A stretch of DNA of 43,821 bases from sequence record PQ850632.1; one strand, written 5' to 3'. The notes under the pieces were generated by a model. That model had not been told where the DNA came from, did no database searches, and saw only the letters and a list, made by a program, of their open reading frames with translations. This DNA comes from Escherichia phage VerenaMeyer_Bas76. Each line of letters opens with the position of its first letter. The stretch's first letter is position 1. The translations under genes and the position numbers were made by a program. Positions 27,493 through 35,526 of the stretch are shown one piece after another.

Positions 27493-27620
27493 TCCAGCAC
27501 CCACAAATAAATTGCTACTAGCATACCCAATACGGCGACCATCATGCCGTATTGACCCTCGTGACAGTAGACACCAGCGGCGAATCCCGCCAGCACCGCG
27601 ATAATCAGTTTACTTAGCAT
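27489..27620 (-). CDS. small membrane peptide (43 aa; below cutoff)
   Basis: Manual translation MLSKLIIAVLAGFAAGVYCHEGQYGMMVAVLGMLVAIYLWVLE. Start overlaps the DNA polymerase 3' end; stop overlaps the next ATG. Confidence 0.3.
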   Translation of the reverse strand: MLSKLIIAVLAGFAAGVYCHEGQYGMMVAVLGMLVAIYLWVLE

Positions 27621-29781
27621 AGCGTTTTAACTCCTGACCTTCCGCTACAAGAGGGAACCCCTCCGCCCATTCTGGTAATTCGCACATCAATCGCTCAAGC
27701 TCTGCGACATTGTATTCCGGCGTATCTGGAGTTTCGCAGATAATCTCATCGTGGACATGAAGTACAATTGGATAACCGTTTGCTTCTACGTTCAGCAGCG
27801 CGTTGGCCAGCAAATCACGGCACAACGCCTGAGTGCAGTTTTCCACGAGTTTACCGGAATATGTGTACTGGAACCCCCACTGTCGGGTTAGCTGATTTTC
27901 GCCCTGGTACTTGATGCGCACGTTAGTAGACACCTTCCCGTCTTCGTCTGTCTCTTTTGATACGCTTAACCCGACGCCTGGATAAGACATAACACGACCC
28001 GACGGCAGCGTCATACGCAACCACCAACCAGCGACTTTGTTGCCGTTGTTGTCTGTTTCTACGTTACGCGAAAACTTAACCCCGCGCGGCCCTGCGGTGA
28101 ACTCTTTACCCGGATTGCGGATAGCCGCCATAGCTGCATCTTCAATATCGCGCCAGAATTGGACTATTGCTGGGTTAGCTTCCCGGTACATGCGCTTTAA
28201 AGCGTCACAGGTGCGCCAAACTTTCTTATCAAGAATATATGATGGTCGGTCATCTTTTTCACCAGGACGTGGCGGTCGCTTGGCTTCCTGAATACGCGCC
28301 CATTCATATCCTCGTGCGGTAGCGGCCCAGATATGGTCAGGGAAAGTCCCGTCTAAAGTACGGGCCATATCGTTCAAATCAAGCCCTAAGTTTTTAGCAA
28401 ACGTGACGAAAGCCCCTACACCCCCCGCGTAACCCAGTCCGAGAACCATTGCTTTGGCTATTTGTCTTTGGTCCTTTGTTACGTCGTCATAACTAACGTT
28501 GAACACGGTTGATGCGAGTTTCTTATACACATCAACCCCGTTTACAAATACTTCTATTAAATCGTCTTCGCCAGCCAGCCACGCCAAACCACGGCCTTCA
28601 ACGTTAGAGTAATCGGCTACGACAAACTTATGCCCTGCTTCCGGGATAATGCAGCTACGAACCGTCGACGCCGTTAGCTTGGCTACGTCGAAACGGCGAT
28701 GCGCACGACCCTTAAGTAGCGCTGAAATGCCCTTATCCAGTTCATCATCGTGATAGTACCCGCGCGCCAGGTTCTGTGGTTGGAAGCCTTTACCTGCGAA
28801 CCGTAACGTACGCTTGGCCCCACCGTACTGGATGCAACCACGGCGGCGGTCGTCCGACGAGCGACCCAACAGCAGCGGGTTATATTTCGTTGACGCAGTG
28901 GACGCGGCCCCGAGGCGCATTTCTATAATTGTGCGGGCGTCGTCGGGTAAATCCTCATCCACCAGCAGGTCGTTAAGCGTTGACTTCTGTGCATTGTGTA
29001 TGCGGTGCGCGGGCGCAAGTTCACGCAGAATCGGAAGGAAGTCTTTACCGGTAAGCGAGCCGCCGTATTTACGTTGAGCTTCTTCCTGTAACTGTGCCTT
29101 GTGCTTCTCTACGGCTTCAATCGCGGCTTCCGCCAGTGCGACGTCAACCTTAAATCCGCGGTCGTTGATTAACTGGTCAAGCTCCAGTACACGGTCTTCG
29201 AACTCGGAGTTACCCCAACGCGGCAGCTTATGGAAGACTTCACGCATCGCAGTGATGTCGCTCACGGCGTACCTGATGAACATCGCCCACTCGTCAGGGT
29301 GAGTTTCTGCGGTGTAGCGGCGGATTTTGTAGTTCTTCGGCGTCGGTTTAGAGAAACGCTTAATCAGAGCCTTGCCGCGTTTATCTTTCGCGTTGTCTGC
29401 AGACACGCCCAGCACTTCGCACAGCGCATCAAGAGAACCCGGCAGCGCGTGACGAAATGCCCAAATCATCGTATCAATGGTGTTGCTTACCGGAATATCA
29501 AAGCCCCAGCAGTGTTTCATGATGAGCCTGTCGAACATTGAGCCGTTGTGCCACACCATCTTGATGCGGCTGTTTGGCTTCACCAGGCGGCGTAATGCGC
29601 GATGCAAATCACCCGGCATGTCGCTGCCGTCTGTGCAATCCCATACCTGCACAGGCTGGTCGTCAAAAGCATATGTACAAATAAGCACTTCGGTGGTTGG
29701 ATGTTCGGCGTAAGCGTAGGAACCGACTTTCTTTAAATCGGCTTCGGAGAATGTTTCAAAGTCCAGGTATAAGTAGCTCAT
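27610..29781 (-). CDS. DNA polymerase I (family A) with 3'-5' exonuclease domain
   Basis: Exo I motif LDFETFS; polymerase motif A DYSNVEGR, motif B RQIAKAMVLGLGYAGG, motif C VLHVHDE. ATG at 29781 (preceded by AAGGAAA) preferred; the ORF track extends to a GTG at 29850. Confidence 0.9.
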   Translation of the reverse strand: MSYLYLDFETFSEADLKKVGSYAYAEHPTTEVLICTYAFDDQPVQVWDCTDGSDMPGDLHRALRRLVKPNSRIKMVWHNGSMFDRLIMKHCWGFDIPVSNTIDTMIWAFRHALPGSLDALCEVLGVSADNAKDKRGKALIKRFSKPTPKNYKIRRYTAETHPDEWAMFIRYAVSDITAMREVFHKLPRWGNSEFEDRVLELDQLINDRGFKVDVALAEAAIEAVEKHKAQLQEEAQRKYGGSLTGKDFLPILRELAPAHRIHNAQKSTLNDLLVDEDLPDDARTIIEMRLGAASTASTKYNPLLLGRSSDDRRRGCIQYGGAKRTLRFAGKGFQPQNLARGYYHDDELDKGISALLKGRAHRRFDVAKLTASTVRSCIIPEAGHKFVVADYSNVEGRGLAWLAGEDDLIEVFVNGVDVYKKLASTVFNVSYDDVTKDQRQIAKAMVLGLGYAGGVGAFVTFAKNLGLDLNDMARTLDGTFPDHIWAATARGYEWARIQEAKRPPRPGEKDDRPSYILDKKVWRTCDALKRMYREANPAIVQFWRDIEDAAMAAIRNPGKEFTAGPRGVKFSRNVETDNNGNKVAGWWLRMTLPSGRVMSYPGVGLSVSKETDEDGKVSTNVRIKYQGENQLTRQWGFQYTYSGKLVENCTQALCRDLLANALLNVEANGYPIVLHVHDEIICETPDTPEYNVAELERLMCELPEWAEGFPLVAEGQELKRYAK

Positions 29782-29945
29782 TTCTTTTTCCTTAAATCCA
29801 GTGCCTTCGTTTCGCTTAATCTTATTTTCATACAATTGCGGCAAATCCACACATGCCTGTACCCGGCCCGGTACTCATCCGCGTACCACGGAAGCGGTTT
29901 CATATAGCGGTAAACGTGCTTACAGAAAAACATTATTTTCGACCC

Positions 29946-29992: not shown

Positions 29993-30619
29993 TTAGCGGC
30001 GGCGACGTTCGCGGCGCGGTGCTTCATCTTCTTCGTCGTCTTCCAGGTCATTGACGCTCGCAGCGACTTTAGAACCGCCGAACGCTTTGCCTTCGCCAAC
30101 GTATTTAATCGCCAGCAGGTTAACGCCGAGGACTTTGTATTTCTGGCTGAACCAGATTTCAACGCTTACGTTAGCTAAGCATCCGCTGTAAACCTGTTCA
30201 CCTTCAATCTGTTCACCGTCTACATTGAAGTCCTGTTCTACCTGAGTCTCACCTTTTTTAGAGGTTACAATCAGCGGCTGCTTCTGTGCCTTCGCTTTGA
30301 AGTAGAAGCCTTCCGGGAAGTCTTCAAACGGATTGTCACGCTCGGCAATGTCTTTAATCGCACATTTATCCATGTGCTTACCTTCGCCGTAGTTGGACTT
30401 CATCCACTTCTCGGCGGCGGCTGCACCTAACGCTTCTTCAACTACAGCGTAAACGGTGTCGTAGAGCGCGTCGATTTGCGCGTGGTCGGACGGCAGGATA
30501 ATAGTCGCGCTGTACTGACCTTTAGTGATTGAACCATCATCATTTTCACGGTCTTTTTCGCGTTCGAATACGTTAACCCAGGCAGTGTTTACTTTACGCA
30601 GATTTAATTTCAGTCCCAT
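29993..30619 (-). CDS. single-stranded DNA-binding protein-like (putative)
   Basis: 208 aa. Sits alone under a strong promoter between the nuclease and polymerase genes. Acidic tail DLEDDEEDEA followed by an Arg-rich end. Assignment is tentative. Confidence 0.4.
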   Translation of the reverse strand: MGLKLNLRKVNTAWVNVFEREKDRENDDGSITKGQYSATIILPSDHAQIDALYDTVYAVVEEALGAAAAEKWMKSNYGEGKHMDKCAIKDIAERDNPFEDFPEGFYFKAKAQKQPLIVTSKKGETQVEQDFNVDGEQIEGEQVYSGCLANVSVEIWFSQKYKVLGVNLLAIKYVGEGKAFGGSKVAASVNDLEDDEEDEAPRRERRRR

Positions 30620-30677: not shown

Positions 30678-30706
30678 ACTATAATAGCTAACTATTCATG
30701 TGTCAA
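30678..30706 (-). promoter_or_regulatory. sigma70-type promoter TTGACA-N17-TATAGT
   Basis: Minus-strand reading TTGACACATGAATAGTTAGCTATTATAGT, nearly identical to the promoter at 32978..33006. Confidence 0.55.
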
Positions 30707-30895
30707 ATAAAATTTTGCAATAGGGATTATGTTCTCGAAATTAAGCATATTGGCCGGTTCGAACTCATCCTCTACAGGGTCGTATCGCATCATGGTACCG
30801 TTCAAGAACGTGAACGATTCCGAGTGTAGATACCCATCCCAGCGCCATACCATCAAAAAATCTTTATCAGTCGGCATTTCATTTACTTGAATCAT
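30692..30895 (-). CDS. hypothetical protein (67 aa)
   Basis: ATG 30895..30893 overlaps the nuclease stop (ATGA). The Shine-Dalgarno GAGGAGGA lies inside the last codons of the nuclease gene. The ORF track extends to 30925. Confidence 0.4.
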   Translation of the reverse strand: MIQVNEMPTDKDFLMVWRWDGYLHSESFTFLNGTMMRYDPVEDEFEPANMLNFENIIPIAKFYLTHE

Positions 30896-32148
30896 TCTAA
30901 ATCCTCCTCTGTAACTTGATTCCACTCAGGACGTTTGTCATCCGCCGTTGCGACGCATGGCGCACCGGGCTTACGGGTAATGAAGTCTTTCAGTTCTTCT
31001 TCCGGTACAATTTTAACCGCTTCGGTCGGTGTCATAAGAACTACCTTTTGCAGCATAGTACCGTACTTCTCGAATACTGCGTCGGTATCTTTCCACGCAC
31101 GATTACCGGGGCGACCTTCAACCAGTTTGTATCCTGGCACTTTCTTACCTGAATGCAAAGCAGCAGCCATCGCTTTCTCAACCTTGTCAATGTGCTGGCG
31201 CAACAAAGGCAACTTCTCATATTCAGCTACGAGTTGCTCCGGCGTAAGTTCCAGCGCAAAGTCGTCCTCCAGTTCTTCGGCAAGTACAGAATTAACAGTC
31301 TTTGTACGCGCTGCGCACTGTTCAGAGAACCGACACCACTGACAACCGTCGACAGACGGCTTAAAGTCCGACGCTTTCAGGTTCTTCTTGCCTCGGAAAT
31401 ACGCATCAAGGGCTAACAGTGCGCGTTTCTGTGCGAACTTAGCGAACAGTTCCAGACCTTCAACCGAGATGTCCCACTCCGACGCGCCCCCGGCGTACGG
31501 CTGGAAGATTACCAGGCGCACTACTGAGATGTTATAACGTCTCTTGAGTCGGCGGTAAACACCGAGAGCGTAGAGCATAAGCTGCTTGTTTTCTTTCGCT
31601 TCGACATGATGCCGTCCTGTTTTCAGGTCGCCGATAATGAGCATATGCTCGTCAGTGTTCGCCAGTTCCTGAACGGCAACGAGGTCGGCGGTTCCGAATG
31701 TCTCTACGCCTTCATATCCCGGATGCAGAACCTCAGTAAGATTTACGCGCATCTCCAGCTTCGCGTAAGTCGCCACGTCGATAATCGCTTTGCAGTAATC
31801 GGTGTACTTTGTACACTGGTCAATCATGTCCGCCGTAATCAGTACCGCACCTTTCATCGGACTGATTAGCGCCTTAATCTGACCTTTACCCTCATCCAGC
31901 ACGTAAGCGCCGACTTCTCGTTCTAACGGCAAAGCAGTTCCTTTGATGTACTGATTCAGGTGAATCTCAGATATCGTGTGCATAGCCGTGCCTGATATGG
32001 CGGCTTTACCTGACGTGTTAGGAATGTCTTTTTCACATGCCAGCGATGCACTGCACGCCAACCATTTCTTAGCACCAGACGGCGACAGTAAGGCGTGTAC
32101 ATCGTTATTTCCGCCGCGTTCCTTTAAAACCATGCTCTGCTCTCCCAC
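30892..32148 (-). CDS. PD-(D/E)XK exonuclease (Cas4/RecB-like) with Cys cluster
   Basis: 418 aa. N-terminal SPSGAKKWLACSASLAC, catalytic core IGDLKTG, QLMLYAL motif, C-terminal CQWCRFSEQC cluster. Ends VTEEDLE. Confidence 0.7.
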   Translation of the reverse strand: MGEQSMVLKERGGNNDVHALLSPSGAKKWLACSASLACEKDIPNTSGKAAISGTAMHTISEIHLNQYIKGTALPLEREVGAYVLDEGKGQIKALISPMKGAVLITADMIDQCTKYTDYCKAIIDVATYAKLEMRVNLTEVLHPGYEGVETFGTADLVAVQELANTDEHMLIIGDLKTGRHHVEAKENKQLMLYALGVYRRLKRRYNISVVRLVIFQPYAGGASEWDISVEGLELFAKFAQKRALLALDAYFRGKKNLKASDFKPSVDGCQWCRFSEQCAARTKTVNSVLAEELEDDFALELTPEQLVAEYEKLPLLRQHIDKVEKAMAAALHSGKKVPGYKLVEGRPGNRAWKDTDAVFEKYGTMLQKVVLMTPTEAVKIVPEEELKDFITRKPGAPCVATADDKRPEWNQVTEEDLE

Positions 32149-32445: not shown

Positions 32446-32946
32446 TTATTCTTCTTCGAAATACTTGTTCTTAATCGCCGTCAGGCGTTTCAGGTATTCA
32501 GCCAGGTCTTCGTCTTTAATCGCGGCAATCTTCATTTTCTTACCGGTGAACTCCTCCAGCAGTTCATCGGAATCGTCGCACGCAGCATCGCTAGGACCTT
32601 CGTTAATTGCATCGTCGATAGCCTGAATCTGGTCACGAAGAGACTGGTAATCGACCTCTTCTTTCTCTTCTTCTGGTTCTGGAGTCGGCTCCTCTACTTT
32701 AGCTTTACGCGGCTTGCGTTTCGGCTTCTCTTCTTCTGCTGGTTTAGCGTCAACGATGTCTTCACCTTCAACAGGGATTTCTTTTGTTGCTTCTTTTTCG
32801 CACTCAGCTACCGCTTCTTTGGTATACACTACCGTCTCTACTTCTAACGGCGCTGCAACTTGTGCTGACTGTTTCGCACTGTTCGCAGCAATCAGTTCAT
32901 GTGCAACTACGAAACGTTCCAGTAATTTTAAGAATTGTTCTAACAT
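32446..32946 (-). CDS. highly acidic protein, first gene after a strong early promoter
   Basis: 166 aa. Long Glu/Asp/Pro/Lys-rich region (EEPTPEPEEEKEEVD...), ends YFEEE. ATG preceded by the conserved leader AAACGAGAGGAGAGA. Confidence 0.6.
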   Translation of the reverse strand: MLEQFLKLLERFVVAHELIAANSAKQSAQVAAPLEVETVVYTKEAVAECEKEATKEIPVEGEDIVDAKPAEEEKPKRKPRKAKVEEPTPEPEEEKEEVDYQSLRDQIQAIDDAINEGPSDAACDDSDELLEEFTGKKMKIAAIKDEDLAEYLKRLTAIKNKYFEEE

Positions 32947-32977: not shown

Positions 32978-33006
32978 ACTATAATAGCGAACTATTCACA
33001 TGTCAA
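32978..33006 (-). promoter_or_regulatory. sigma70-type promoter TTGACA-N17-TATAGT
   Basis: Minus-strand reading TTGACATGTGAATAGTTCGCTATTATAGT. Divergent from the plus-strand promoter of the XRE gene. Confidence 0.6.
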
Positions 33007-33070: not shown

Positions 33071-33286
33071 ATGCAACCATCTGAACTAGGCATCCGTGTA
33101 GAACAACGCCGCAAAGAACTCGGCATCTCCCAGCGCCGTCTGGCGGTCCTGGCTGGCGTTTCCCAGGGCGCGATTAACCAGCTTGCGCTCGGGGTAACTC
33201 AGGACGTCCGGCCGGCAACGCTGTTCAAACTGGCGGAAGTTCTGGAAGTAGACGCCAAGTGGCTGGCGTTAGGTGAAGGGGCTTAA
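33071..33286 (+). CDS. XRE/Cro-type helix-turn-helix transcriptional regulator
   Basis: 71 aa. HTH signature ELGISQRRLAVLAGVSQGAINQL. Lone plus-strand gene between two minus-strand operons. Confidence 0.7.
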   Translation: MQPSELGIRVEQRRKELGISQRRLAVLAGVSQGAINQLALGVTQDVRPATLFKLAEVLEVDAKWLALGEGA

Positions 33287-33301
33287 AGCCCCTTTCTTTT
33301 T
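33276..33301 (+). terminator. intrinsic terminator (AAGGGGCTT-AA-AGCCCCTT plus TTCTTTTT)
   Basis: The hairpin contains the stop codon of the HTH gene and is followed by a T-run. Confidence 0.5.
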
Positions 33302-33303
33302 AC

Positions 33304-35526
33304 CTATTCCAAATCCTCCTCTGTCACCACCAGCATCTCATTTGGTTCGTATAGTGTCTTCGGCCTTAATCTATCCCCTATTCTTTCGGGTATACGATAT
33401 GTTCTCGGTACTACTTCGCCGTTAGCATCGCAACCAAGCATTAGTTCTCCATCTTTCAACATTTTATCAAGATGGGTGTTAGTCACAGAGAAGTCACCGG
33501 AACGAGCCACTATCTGCTGCTGAGTAAAACCGCGACCTGTGTCATCTGACTGTTGCAGGTCTTCCAGTGCCGAAAGTATTGACTCCTTCCTTACTTCATC
33601 CCTGCCGCGTTTAACTTCTTCCTTTACTTTTTGCTTACCTTCTTTCGTCAACCCTTCTTCCCGCTCTTTCTCCTCGTCAGTTTTGAACGGCTCGAAACCC
33701 CACGGCATCAACACAAGCGCCTTGTGTGGTTCAGGAAGGTCCAGGTTTACGATTGTGCCGTATTCTTCTGTGCCCCCCAGGAACTCAACCGCACGGTACT
33801 CTTTCGGCGGCGGAGCTTCGCGGAACTGCACAGACTCCAGCACCATGCCAACCGTTTTCTGTTGAGGACCGTGCTTAAATTTCGAGTGGTATACGTTTAT
33901 TTGACGGTCGGTTGCACGTTCGATTGTCAGTTCCACGTCAACACCCGCATACAGCGCCCCACTGCCGCGTGCTTTCTTTCCACCCTTCGGCGTATGGTGG
34001 ACAACGCCTACTGCGGCTTTAGTTGCATCGCGTACTTCTTTCAGAATGGCGATAACTTTACCCATGCCGATTGCTGTTGATGAACTGTTCTCGTCGAACT
34101 TATCAATCGTCAGTGCCAGGGTCTGGTTAAGGGTGTCGAACGCAACCATGCCAATTGGCTCGTCGCCAGCAGTTTCGCGCATTAACTTAATCAGGCTTTT
34201 AAGTTTGCCGACTTCGCCCATATCGATGACGTGTACATAATCTTTACCTTCCCCGCCATATTTAGCCGCTAGTGCATCAATACGGGTGCGTGTAGCTGCG
34301 CCACCCTCACCATCAATATAGAAATGGTGGCAACGCTGGGTATCCGCCCCCGCAAACCTGTACCCGGCGGCGCTGAGGTACATCATCCCCAGCGTATAGA
34401 ACGATTTGTACGTGCCAGATTCCCCGACGATATCCCAGATACAATCCGACGGCATGTACCCCTCAACGACGAAATCAGCCTTTACCGGCTCCGGTAACTC
34501 GTCCTCCTCTGAGTCCTCGTCGTCTTCCAGGTCGTCGAGGCTGCAAGTTACTGGGTCCTCGTTCTCTGTGCGGTGTAGTTCTTCAATCTCTTCTTCCGGT
34601 AAATCAGGCAGAGCCGCACGAATGCTGTTAATGCTGATAGGTTGCTTATCTATGTTAAGCTCGTCGGGTAGGCCACACATACGCAGGGCCAAATGCTGCC
34701 TACGGTTAAGCTCGGTGCAAGCGCCGTTGTTTGTATGCTGGCAGACAAAGCGCACTTCTTTACCGTCGAGCATTATGCTGGTGGAGCCCTTGCCTGTATG
34801 CAGATGTTCGTTAGGGCATGGCACTTCGTACCCGCGCCCGGAAGATAAAGCGTCAAGGCCAAGCTCGGCTTCGCAGAAGTGTGCTATATCCGCGTTAAGC
34901 CCATGCTCATCAGCGGCAAGTGTTTTAGCCTCACGCTTACGCAACCCCATCTCTTCGGCTTTCTTGATGTACCGCTCAGCACGGATAACACGCCCTTCTG
35001 TAACCGTTATCTTCGACTCTTTATGCGGCAGGTAGATAAGGCGGTTGCCGTCTTCTGTGCAGTGGTCGCGCAACGCTTCGTCTATTTCTAACTCTGCACA
35101 AATAGCACGTTGCACCATCCACGCGTCGTTAGAGTTAAACGGCGTGCGAGCTGGAACCAGAACGCGGAAAGCGTAATCTCCATTTTTACATGCGTGCTGA
35201 TGCGATGCCGTTGTGTGCAGAATATTGAAGAACGGCGCGTTCTTGAATTTGCGTGTCAGGTCGCGGTACTGAGTACGGTTGAGATGGTCGAAATCGAACT
35301 TAACCACACTGTCTTCCAGGATAGCGTTTTTACGGCGACCACCAACAGGCGCAATAGCTTTCTGTTTAATCTTGGCAGCGTCGTACTCTTCCTTAGTCCA
35401 TGACGGGTCCACGGATAAACGCTTCGATGTATCGCAGACATACTCGACAAACTGCTCCAGCGGCATTTCACGCGCTACAGGGTTTTTATCGAATGTGTTA
35501 CGCAGCGTTGCAAAAACAATATTCAT
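33304..35526 (-). CDS. DNA primase / replicative helicase (primase-polymerase-like N-terminus, zinc-binding region, RecA-like ATPase)
   Basis: 740 aa. Cys/His cluster CPNEHLH...C, Walker A-like GESGTYKS, RecA-like helicase core. Ends VTEEDLE. Confidence 0.65.
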   Translation of the reverse strand: MNIVFATLRNTFDKNPVAREMPLEQFVEYVCDTSKRLSVDPSWTKEEYDAAKIKQKAIAPVGGRRKNAILEDSVVKFDFDHLNRTQYRDLTRKFKNAPFFNILHTTASHQHACKNGDYAFRVLVPARTPFNSNDAWMVQRAICAELEIDEALRDHCTEDGNRLIYLPHKESKITVTEGRVIRAERYIKKAEEMGLRKREAKTLAADEHGLNADIAHFCEAELGLDALSSGRGYEVPCPNEHLHTGKGSTSIMLDGKEVRFVCQHTNNGACTELNRRQHLALRMCGLPDELNIDKQPISINSIRAALPDLPEEEIEELHRTENEDPVTCSLDDLEDDEDSEEDELPEPVKADFVVEGYMPSDCIWDIVGESGTYKSFYTLGMMYLSAAGYRFAGADTQRCHHFYIDGEGGAATRTRIDALAAKYGGEGKDYVHVIDMGEVGKLKSLIKLMRETAGDEPIGMVAFDTLNQTLALTIDKFDENSSSTAIGMGKVIAILKEVRDATKAAVGVVHHTPKGGKKARGSGALYAGVDVELTIERATDRQINVYHSKFKHGPQQKTVGMVLESVQFREAPPPKEYRAVEFLGGTEEYGTIVNLDLPEPHKALVLMPWGFEPFKTDEEKEREEGLTKEGKQKVKEEVKRGRDEVRKESILSALEDLQQSDDTGRGFTQQQIVARSGDFSVTNTHLDKMLKDGELMLGCDANGEVVPRTYRIPERIGDRLRPKTLYEPNEMLVVTEEDLE

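Follow-up and report, generated by a model that had tools for sequence, protein, structure and literature searches.

Two replication enzymes of Escherichia phage VerenaMeyer_Bas76 end in the same seven residues. The stretch of DNA concerned, called the window below, is the whole of the 43,821 nucleotides analysed from sequence record PQ850632.1. The enzymes are an exonuclease of the DUF2800 family (the nuclease) and the replicative helicase-primase, and each ends in VTEEDLE followed by a stop codon. Sequence comparison and analogy with known phages suggest that VTEEDLE is probably one copy of a portable docking peptide. [quoted passage not shown] It would act at the protein level and be carried by the SSB, the nuclease and the helicase-primase.

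An earlier note, made from the letters of this DNA, had described the common ending and held that the same 16 nucleotides encode it twice. Translation of both 3' ends agrees with the common ending, the helicase-primase reading …VVTEEDLE before its stop. The shared DNA is shorter than claimed, since the exact match, ACAGAGGAGGATTT, has 14 nucleotides. If three mismatches are allowed, the match reaches 25 nucleotides, GT[T/G]ACAGAGGAGGATTT[A/G]GAAT[G/A].

Chance is excluded as the source of this identity, because only 5.5e-6 pairs of identical C-terminal heptapeptides are expected among the 64 non-overlapping open reading frames (ORFs) of the window, and because ACAGAGGAGGATTT occurs exactly twice in the window, both times at the tails, against 0.01 occurrences expected from shuffles. 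Among the same 64 ORFs, no further pair shares even one C-terminal tripeptide.

Conservation of the tail and further copies of the motif

Searches for close homologues return only near-identical Kagunavirus proteins, which alone are uninformative on selection. A profile search with the nuclease finds 11,137 relatives among 50%-identity cluster representatives. Over 160 related loci, the Asp-Leu core of the tail stays the same while its codons differ. The comparison takes in 80 viral loci with nucleases 44-96% identical, with flanks of up to 10 kb in which the neighbouring proteins were identified, and 80 loci of one distant clade.

The nuclease tail is retained in about 120 Kagunavirus homologues, and the tail is also kept in Kagunavirus helicase-primases. 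In every lineage of the first 80-locus set, both proteins end x-[ST/A]-[DE]-[DE]-D-L-x(1-3) (Table 1). Across the lineages that share this tail, the helicase-primases are only about 30% identical, the nucleases 44-57% and the polymerases 60-66%.

Table 1. C-terminal tails of the nuclease and the helicase-primase by lineage
Lineage	Nuclease	Helicase-primase
Kagunavirus	VTEEDLE	VTEEDLE
Jerseyvirus	VTEDDLEA	TTEGDLE
Cornellvirus	ATDSDLED	SEEDDLEN
Klebsiella 37P2/VLCpiS11a-like	ASDEDLS	ASDEDLNS
Distant Cornellvirus relatives	VSDEDLA	AADEDLE
Dhillonvirus / Sodalis SO-1	ATDEDLSNE	ATDDDLKD

The core of the tail is the pair Asp-Leu. It is unchanged in 46 nuclease, 50 helicase-primase and 57 SSB distinct DNA variants, a count anchored on the pair itself and made where the core could be located. 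Two alignments provide checks that do not depend on this anchoring. In the nuclease alignment, neither D416 nor L417 varies down to 39% identity, and D191, L192 and D194 are invariant across SSBs that are 39-99% identical. All six Leu codons are in use at the core position among the helicases. On this comparative evidence, selection acts on the tail at the protein level, because Asp-Leu is invariant, the codons vary freely and the peptide persists where no gene lies downstream.

The ending is also specific to a few proteins. Of 6,943 ORFs of at least 60 residues in 84 loci, 168 end [DE]DL.{0,3}. Nucleases and helicase-primases account for 136 of them and two families of small proteins for 30, which leaves 2 others.

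Copies of the motif can also be found away from the two C-termini, and together they give the consensus [VA]-[ST]-[DE]-[DE]-D-L-x-[DE]. The third copy in the window is ASVNDLED (local sequence ASVNDLEDDEEDE), at residues 187-194 of the SSB, where the disordered tail of that protein starts. In every lineage the SSB motif comes directly after the OB core, for instance as ATDNDLDDDDD in Cornellvirus and as CSDEDLGDDDEDE in Dhillonvirus. The helicase-primase ending …VVTEEDLE resembles the SSB segment …SVNDLEDD.

The SSB tail (ASVNDLEDDEEDEAPRRERRRR) had been described in the earlier note as acidic. It is acidic, and holds a copy of the motif as well, but it ends in a basic cluster, PRRERRRR. This cluster is conserved. 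Beyond the motif and a stretch of acidic residues, the protein ends (residues 195-208) in APRRERRRR, with an invariant P201. The SSB tails of Dhillonvirus, 37P2-like phages and Cornellvirus have grown into repeated acidic/basic modules (…DDEDE-PRKRRK…). The basic ending here is unlike T7 gp2.5 and the distant DUF2815 proteins, whose hydrophobic motif is terminal.

A fourth copy, CSLDDLED (sequence CSLDDLEDDEDSEEDE), occupies residues 328-335 of the helicase-primase, in the acidic linker between its primase-like half and its helicase core. Kagunavirus, Jerseyvirus and 37P2-like helicase-primases all keep the linker copy, although their N-terminal modules differ. The copy number is not constant, as the helicase-primases of loci L042 and L002 illustrate. 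The linker motif is duplicated in tandem (DEEDLADEEDLADEE) in one helicase-primase of the Jerseyvirus type, and the C-terminal tail of Cornellvirus helicase-primases holds the motif twice (…TDINDLEDSQPTSEEDDLEN).

Two unrelated small proteins, both encoded in the replication module of relatives, bear the tail as well. The first has 77 residues, matches phrog_5169 over its full length and ends …AT[PL]EDLE; its gene lies just upstream of the helicase-primase gene in Jerseyviruses and some Kagunaviruses. The second has 62-67 residues and ends …ATDEDLE; 37P2-like phages encode it between SSB and polymerase. A tblastn search found no homologue of either in this window. In LPSE1, the 77-residue gene is annotated merely as a 35-residue 'uvsX-like' fragment.

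Of the core replication proteins, the family A DNA polymerase alone is without the motif, a regular-expression search of it having found no copy.

A peptide and a ribosome-binding site on the same nucleotides

The nuclease tail also provides the Shine-Dalgarno (SD) sequence of the next gene, as the earlier note had stated. The sequence GAGGAGG lies within the Glu-Glu-Asp codons, with a spacer of 7 nucleotides before the ATG of a 67-residue gene, and this ATG overlaps the nuclease stop codon as ATGA. The helicase-primase tail of the window has no such junction. No gene follows it; instead, a terminator hairpin, common to a convergent helix-turn-helix (HTH) gene, comes directly after the stop codon. 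The same junction is nevertheless present at the helicase-primase 3' end of some relatives, Shashou among them along with several further Kagunaviruses. The Shashou helicase is 59% identical; both proteins of this phage end in VTEEDLE and each stop codon is overlapped by a coupled gene. Thus the helicase tail has served as an SD sequence in some relatives.

Where a downstream gene is coupled, Kagunavirus nucleases use the codons ACA GAG GAG. In many other Kagunaviruses, the nuclease ends in TAA followed by a TTGACA promoter, and V-S-E-E-D-L-E is coded with AGT GAA GAA GAT TTG GAA. The SD sequence is lost there and the peptide is retained. Likewise, the Jerseyvirus tails …VTEDDLEA and …TTEGDLE have no coupled genes. 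In relatives without the 67-residue gene, the equivalent TTGACA comes directly after the nuclease stop.

Compared in this way, the peptide is the primary constraint, and GAG-GAG is a codon choice laid over it where a downstream gene is coupled. The identical string of 14 nucleotides would be a by-product of that choice, since the same residues are encoded and GAG-GAG makes an SD sequence for an ATGA-coupled gene. The tail is a clean natural case of a protein motif and a ribosome-binding site on the same nucleotides whose constraints can be separated.

Two other explanations place the origin of the identity in the DNA. In one, the tail is conserved merely for the SD sequence and the translational-coupling junction (GAGGAGGATTTAGAATGA), and the peptide has no function. 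The position of GAGGAGG, 7 nucleotides before an ATG that overlaps the nuclease stop, fits this explanation, as do the coupled genes that overlap the helicase-primase stop in Shashou and several other Kagunaviruses and the correlation of GAG-GAG with a coupled gene. It is very improbable all the same, for the window's own helicase-primase tail is followed by a terminator and no gene, and uncoupled Kagunavirus nucleases use GAA GAA yet keep the peptide. Moreover, the motif is encoded by quite different DNA in the tails of Jerseyvirus, Dhillonvirus and 37P2-like phages, six Leu codons are used while Asp and Leu stay constant, and the motif also occurs inside the SSB tail and the helicase linker, where an SD sequence is irrelevant. 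The earlier note had allowed that the embedded SD sequence might by itself account for the conservation; this is contradicted by the tails that keep the peptide where no SD sequence is needed.

The other explanation is a recent DNA event without functional meaning, such as gene conversion or a 3'-end duplication between the two genes. The identity of 14 nucleotides within a 25-nucleotide stretch with only 3 mismatches is what such an event could leave. However, both proteins carry the motif in every lineage examined with divergent DNA, the upstream codons differ, and no accessory cassette is common to the two 3' junctions, so that a recent event of this kind is hardly credible.

Both 3' junctions are variable accessory slots in the relatives (loci L001-L083), with at least 8 unrelated small genes after the nuclease and at least 6 after the helicase-primase. 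Each slot gene begins with an ATG overlapping the stop codon (GAATGA), and several resemble small membrane proteins. When the downstream genes were compared across the relatives' loci, no gene family common to both slots was found. An exchange of accessory genes between the two near-identical junctions was considered and rejected, because no downstream family occupies both slots.

A candidate docking peptide and its putative receptor

The earlier note had likened the tails to those that dock T7 replication proteins onto the polymerase, and had suggested a common docking motif. The comparative evidence backs this idea and extends it, through the deep conservation, the Asp-Leu core and the copies in the SSB, the linker and the small proteins.

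In the proposed mechanism, the acidic residues would steer the peptide to a basic surface. The invariant Leu, which is Phe in distant relatives, would then insert into a small hydrophobic pocket as its anchor. The nuclease, the helicase-primase hexamer (with up to 12 motifs) and the SSB would all be tethered to one receptor and would compete for it.

The most likely receptor, by analogy, is the phage family A DNA polymerase, because it is the sole core protein without the motif, because it is the most conserved protein of the module (60-66% identical) and because T7 offers a precedent. A near-equal second candidate is the groove in which the SSB itself binds single-stranded DNA (ssDNA), since the proximal tail occupies this groove in crystals of DUF2815 proteins and gp2.5. 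Both sites may be used, as in T7.

The T7 tails are the closest known model. They read …DEDGDF in gp2.5 and …SNDTDF in gp4. Both tails bind the front basic patch of gp5 (K587/K589/R590/R591), with the DTDF peptide seen in PDB entry 6P7E, and the gp2.5 tail also occupies its own positive groove (PMC12339929). The SSB of the window is a gp2.5 homologue (PF10991, phrog_112). As in T7, the SSB and the helicase-primase each have a short acidic tail with a hydrophobic anchor, here …[DE][DE]DLx, and the resemblance is conserved across lineages.

There are also differences. A T7 tail ends in a Phe that is essential for function, whereas the tails here close with Glu, Asp, Asn, Ser or Ala and the invariant Leu stands at position -2 to -4, with 1-3 residues after it. 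Distant relatives have Phe in their proximal motif and finish in Leu-Val/Ile. In addition, the motif here is near-identical between proteins, not merely similar, and is also borne by an exonuclease, a helicase-primase linker and small accessory proteins, while the SSB copy is internal. Judged by this analogy, the tail would act as the T7 tails do, without belonging strictly to their class.

The bacterial SSB C-terminus (SSB-Ct, …DDDIPF) is an acidic disordered tail with a hydrophobic end that serves as a universal docking peptide. The phage tails do not have its …D-D-D-I-P-F-COOH ending, as they lack Pro-Phe-COOH. The arrangement is also reversed. Bacteria have one tail and many proteins with a pocket for it, whereas here many proteins bear the tail, and thus one receptor is implied. 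Readings of the tail as a clamp-binding motif, as an SSB-Ct mimic or as a C-terminal degron were rejected for consensus mismatch.

T4 gp32 offers another comparison. Its SSB tail has acidic Asp-Leu elements (…VADDLDAF…ADDTDLDDLLNDL) that recruit replication and repair partners, and the C-terminal end reads …ADDTDLDDLLNDL. The VADDLDAF segment docks on Dda through Val, Leu and Phe and an Asp-Lys salt bridge (PMC11551737). There, the peptide is described on the SSB hub, whereas here several client enzymes bear the SSB's peptide; moreover, gp32 is not homologous to gp2.5 or DUF2815.

A physical link between the nuclease and the SSB would also be expected from exonuclease-annealase pairs such as lambda Exo-Redβ and RecE-RecT. 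As in those pairs, the nuclease and gp2.5-like annealing genes are adjacent, and in this case a conserved neighbourhood is joined by co-varying tails. λ Exo binds the C-terminal domain of Redβ (PMC6393309). In such pairs a folded domain of the annealase contacts the exonuclease, whereas the candidate here is a linear tail motif that the proteins share, with the polymerase as a possible partner instead of the annealase.

Distant relatives give some indication of how the sharing arose. Distant nucleases (about 33-40% identical) end …DKRPAL-x6-10-[DE][DE]F[DE]DL…. In the 80 loci of one distant environmental clade, the nuclease and the DUF2815 SSB have a common two-part tail, DDFEDL…DDLV. It consists of a proximal [DE][DE]F[DE]D[LIV][ST] and, at the terminus, [DE][DE]L[VIL]-COOH. 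Lineage by lineage, the two proteins have matched endings, …EDMI being paired with …ADMI, …ADIL with …SEIL, and …EDLV with …DDLV. The last three residues match between nuclease and SSB 68 times, compared with 38.6 ± 4.0 for shuffled pairs, shared ancestry being left uncorrected. Across these 80 loci the helicases lack the tail, and occasional small proteins bear it. The B. cereus DUF2815 structure 4jg2 ends …AADDFTTIEDD.

The trio duf2800-gp2.5-polA, with its neighbouring nuclease and gp2.5-like genes, was noted earlier (PMC8093625). Because nuclease and SSB share the tail in the distant clade while the helicases there are without it, the sharing between these two is probably the older state of the module. 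The helicase-primase and the small proteins probably gained the tag later, in the Guernseyvirinae/Dhillonvirus group.

Two further explanations accept a functional peptide but give it a different target. Each acidic tail may be a DNA mimic that folds in cis onto the DNA-binding surface of its own protein, for autoinhibition or gating, without a common partner. Every carrier among the enzymes is a DNA-binding one, and the tails of gp2.5 and the Enc34 SSB do occupy the SSB's own DNA-binding surface (PMC5686142, PMC12339929). Crystal structures of Enc34 ORF6, gp2.5 and two further DUF2815 proteins show the proximal tail placed in the DNA-binding sheet of the molecule next to it (PMC5686142). Removal of the tail raises the DNA affinity of gp2.5 and gp32, and Enc34 ORF6 without it gains binding to double-stranded DNA with unchanged ssDNA affinity (PMC5686142, PMC12339929). 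Yet three to five structurally unrelated proteins, including ones of only 62-77 residues, bear a specific motif and not generic acidity, and the terminal residues of nuclease and SSB change together within genomes. Such a pattern would be expected of one common receptor and not of several different sites in cis, and the cis explanation is unlikely.

Alternatively, the motif may recruit or hijack a host protein, for instance a chaperone or a factor of replication or repair. That bacterial SSB tails act as hubs for host enzymes is known, and a conserved host receptor is conceivable in that every cultured phage with the D-L variant has its host among the Enterobacterales. The motif, however, fits neither the E. 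coli SSB-Ct (…DDDIPF-COOH) nor clamp-binding motifs. These phages also encode their own polymerase, helicase-primase and SSB, and the lineage-specific co-variation of the termini in the distant environmental clade fits a co-evolving receptor encoded by the phage. A host target is therefore improbable, to about the same degree as folding in cis.

Several points weigh against docking on a phage-encoded receptor. The structure model of the SSB has a mean predicted local distance difference test (pLDDT) score of 37, from an alignment of 12 close sequences. Aligned with T7 gp5, the polymerase lacks the thioredoxin-binding insertion, and its segment near T7 K587-R591 is basic and β-hairpin-like but poorly aligned, and so suggestive only. 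Compared with the T7 and E. coli SSB tails, the anchor is a Leu that is not the last residue, and the SSB copy of this clade is internal and followed by a basic cluster. As to co-variation, the shuffle-based tests take no account of common descent, and a helicase-SSB flank comparison of the same kind is not significant.

A broader proposal goes beyond the docking peptide and is tentative. The motif may be a general 'replisome address tag' of the very widespread duf2800-gp2.5-polA module. Whatever protein gained the tail of 6-8 residues would be recruited to one hub, be it the nuclease, the helicase-primase or a small accessory or regulatory protein like phrog_5169. These clients would compete there with the SSB tail and would so order the hand-offs of ssDNA. 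In Kagunaviruses, the DNA of the tag would double as an SD/ATGA junction that aids the capture of accessory genes at both 3' ends. If this were true, the tail sequence would suffice to predict replisome membership in uncharacterised phages by the thousand.

Among the replication/recombination modules of tailed phages, the duf2800-gp2.5-polA module is one of the commonest. A conserved tail whose changes run in parallel in nuclease and SSB, and in this clade in the helicase-primase too, offers a concrete and cheap hypothesis for how its enzymes are wired. It would also carry the "electrostatic tether" principle of T7 over to an exonuclease and small accessory proteins. In the searchable literature, the coverage of which is incomplete, no account was found of a tail that DUF2800 nucleases, DUF2815 SSBs and helicase-primases have in common.

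The replication module of the window

The region shares 98% identity with Escherichia phage LotteLoewe_Bas71, and 90-95% with many other Kagunavirus genomes (Guernseyvirinae). The replication module lies on the minus strand and encodes, in order, the helicase-primase, a 166-residue protein, the nuclease, the 67-residue protein, the SSB and the polymerase (Table 2).

Table 2. Positions of the module genes, motif copies and junction elements in the window, with tail-bearing small proteins of relatives
Feature	Position	Strand	Basis or remark
Replicative helicase-primase	33304-35526	-	RepA/AAA_25 core, residues 345-516, Pfam PF13481; phrog_3228 full length
Primase-like half of helicase-primase, residues 1-348	34483-35526	-	modular
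Acidic 166-residue protein, function unassigned	32446-32946	-	phrog_3127
DUF2800 / PD-(D/E)XK (RecB/Cas4-like) exonuclease	30892-32148	-	Pfam PF10926 8.2e-68, PF12705; phrog_69 exonuclease
Probable nuclease start, Met6 (ATG)	32133	-	homologue lengths and N-termini
67-residue accessory gene, ATGA-coupled to nuclease	30692-30895	-	phrog_6314; variable gene slot
gp2.5-like SSB / annealing protein (DUF2815, Enc34 ORF6 family)	29993-30619	-	Pfam PF10991 3.9e-16; phrog_112 'Gp2.5-like'; PDB relatives 4jg2, 5odj
SSB residues 195-208, basic cluster	29993-30037	-	translation
Family A DNA polymerase with 3'-5' exonuclease	27610-29850	-	Pfam PF00476, PF01612
Motif copy 1, VTEEDLE and stop, nuclease C-terminus	30892-30915	-	translation
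Motif copy 2, VTEEDLE and stop, helicase-primase C-terminus	33304-33327	-	translation
Motif copy 3, ASVNDLED, SSB tail	30038-30061	-	translation
Motif copy 4, CSLDDLED, helicase-primase linker	34522-34545	-	sequence
Shine-Dalgarno GAGGAGG in nuclease tail	30903-30909	-	ahead of ATG 30893-30895
ATG of 67-residue gene	30893-30895	-	overlaps nuclease stop
Terminator hairpin after helicase-primase stop	33275-33296		sequence
Convergent HTH gene	33071-33286	+	
Sigma-70 promoter upstream of SSB gene	30678-30706	-	near-consensus
Sigma-70 promoter upstream of 166-residue gene	32978-33006	-	near-consensus
Tail-bearing small protein, locus L003	7853-8086	-	tail motif
Tail-bearing small protein, locus L009	6091-6324	+	tail motif
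Tail-bearing small protein, locus L055	12393-12581	+	tail motif

The nuclease has the features of the DUF2800 and RecB/Cas4-like families, with the Pfam match, a D…D-x-K core and four conserved Cys. In the alignment of homologues its invariant residues are D155, D174-x-K176, Q189, Y193, C32, C269, C272 and C278. The Pfam DUF2800 model stops at residue 407, and so the tail lies outside the family model. The longest ORF begins at a GTG at 32148 and has 418 residues. The true start is probably Met6, which would give a product of 413 residues, because nearly all homologues have 413-414 residues and begin M-[IV]-LKERGG.

The N-terminal, primase-like half of the helicase-primase is modular and exchangeable among relatives. 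Many Kagunaviruses and all Jerseyviruses align to the protein only from about residue 348, where they are 73-94% identical, and differ in the N-terminal half.

The 166-residue phrog_3127 protein has a conserved aromatic-acidic C-terminus of its own. It reads …NKYFEEE here, and …KYYEIED, …EEFYDAE and …KYYDIQED in distant lineages. It forms a second, distinct tail motif within the same module.

Two near-consensus sigma-70 promoters, each TTGACA-17-TATAGT with 11/12 matches, lie upstream of the SSB gene and of the gene for the 166-residue protein.

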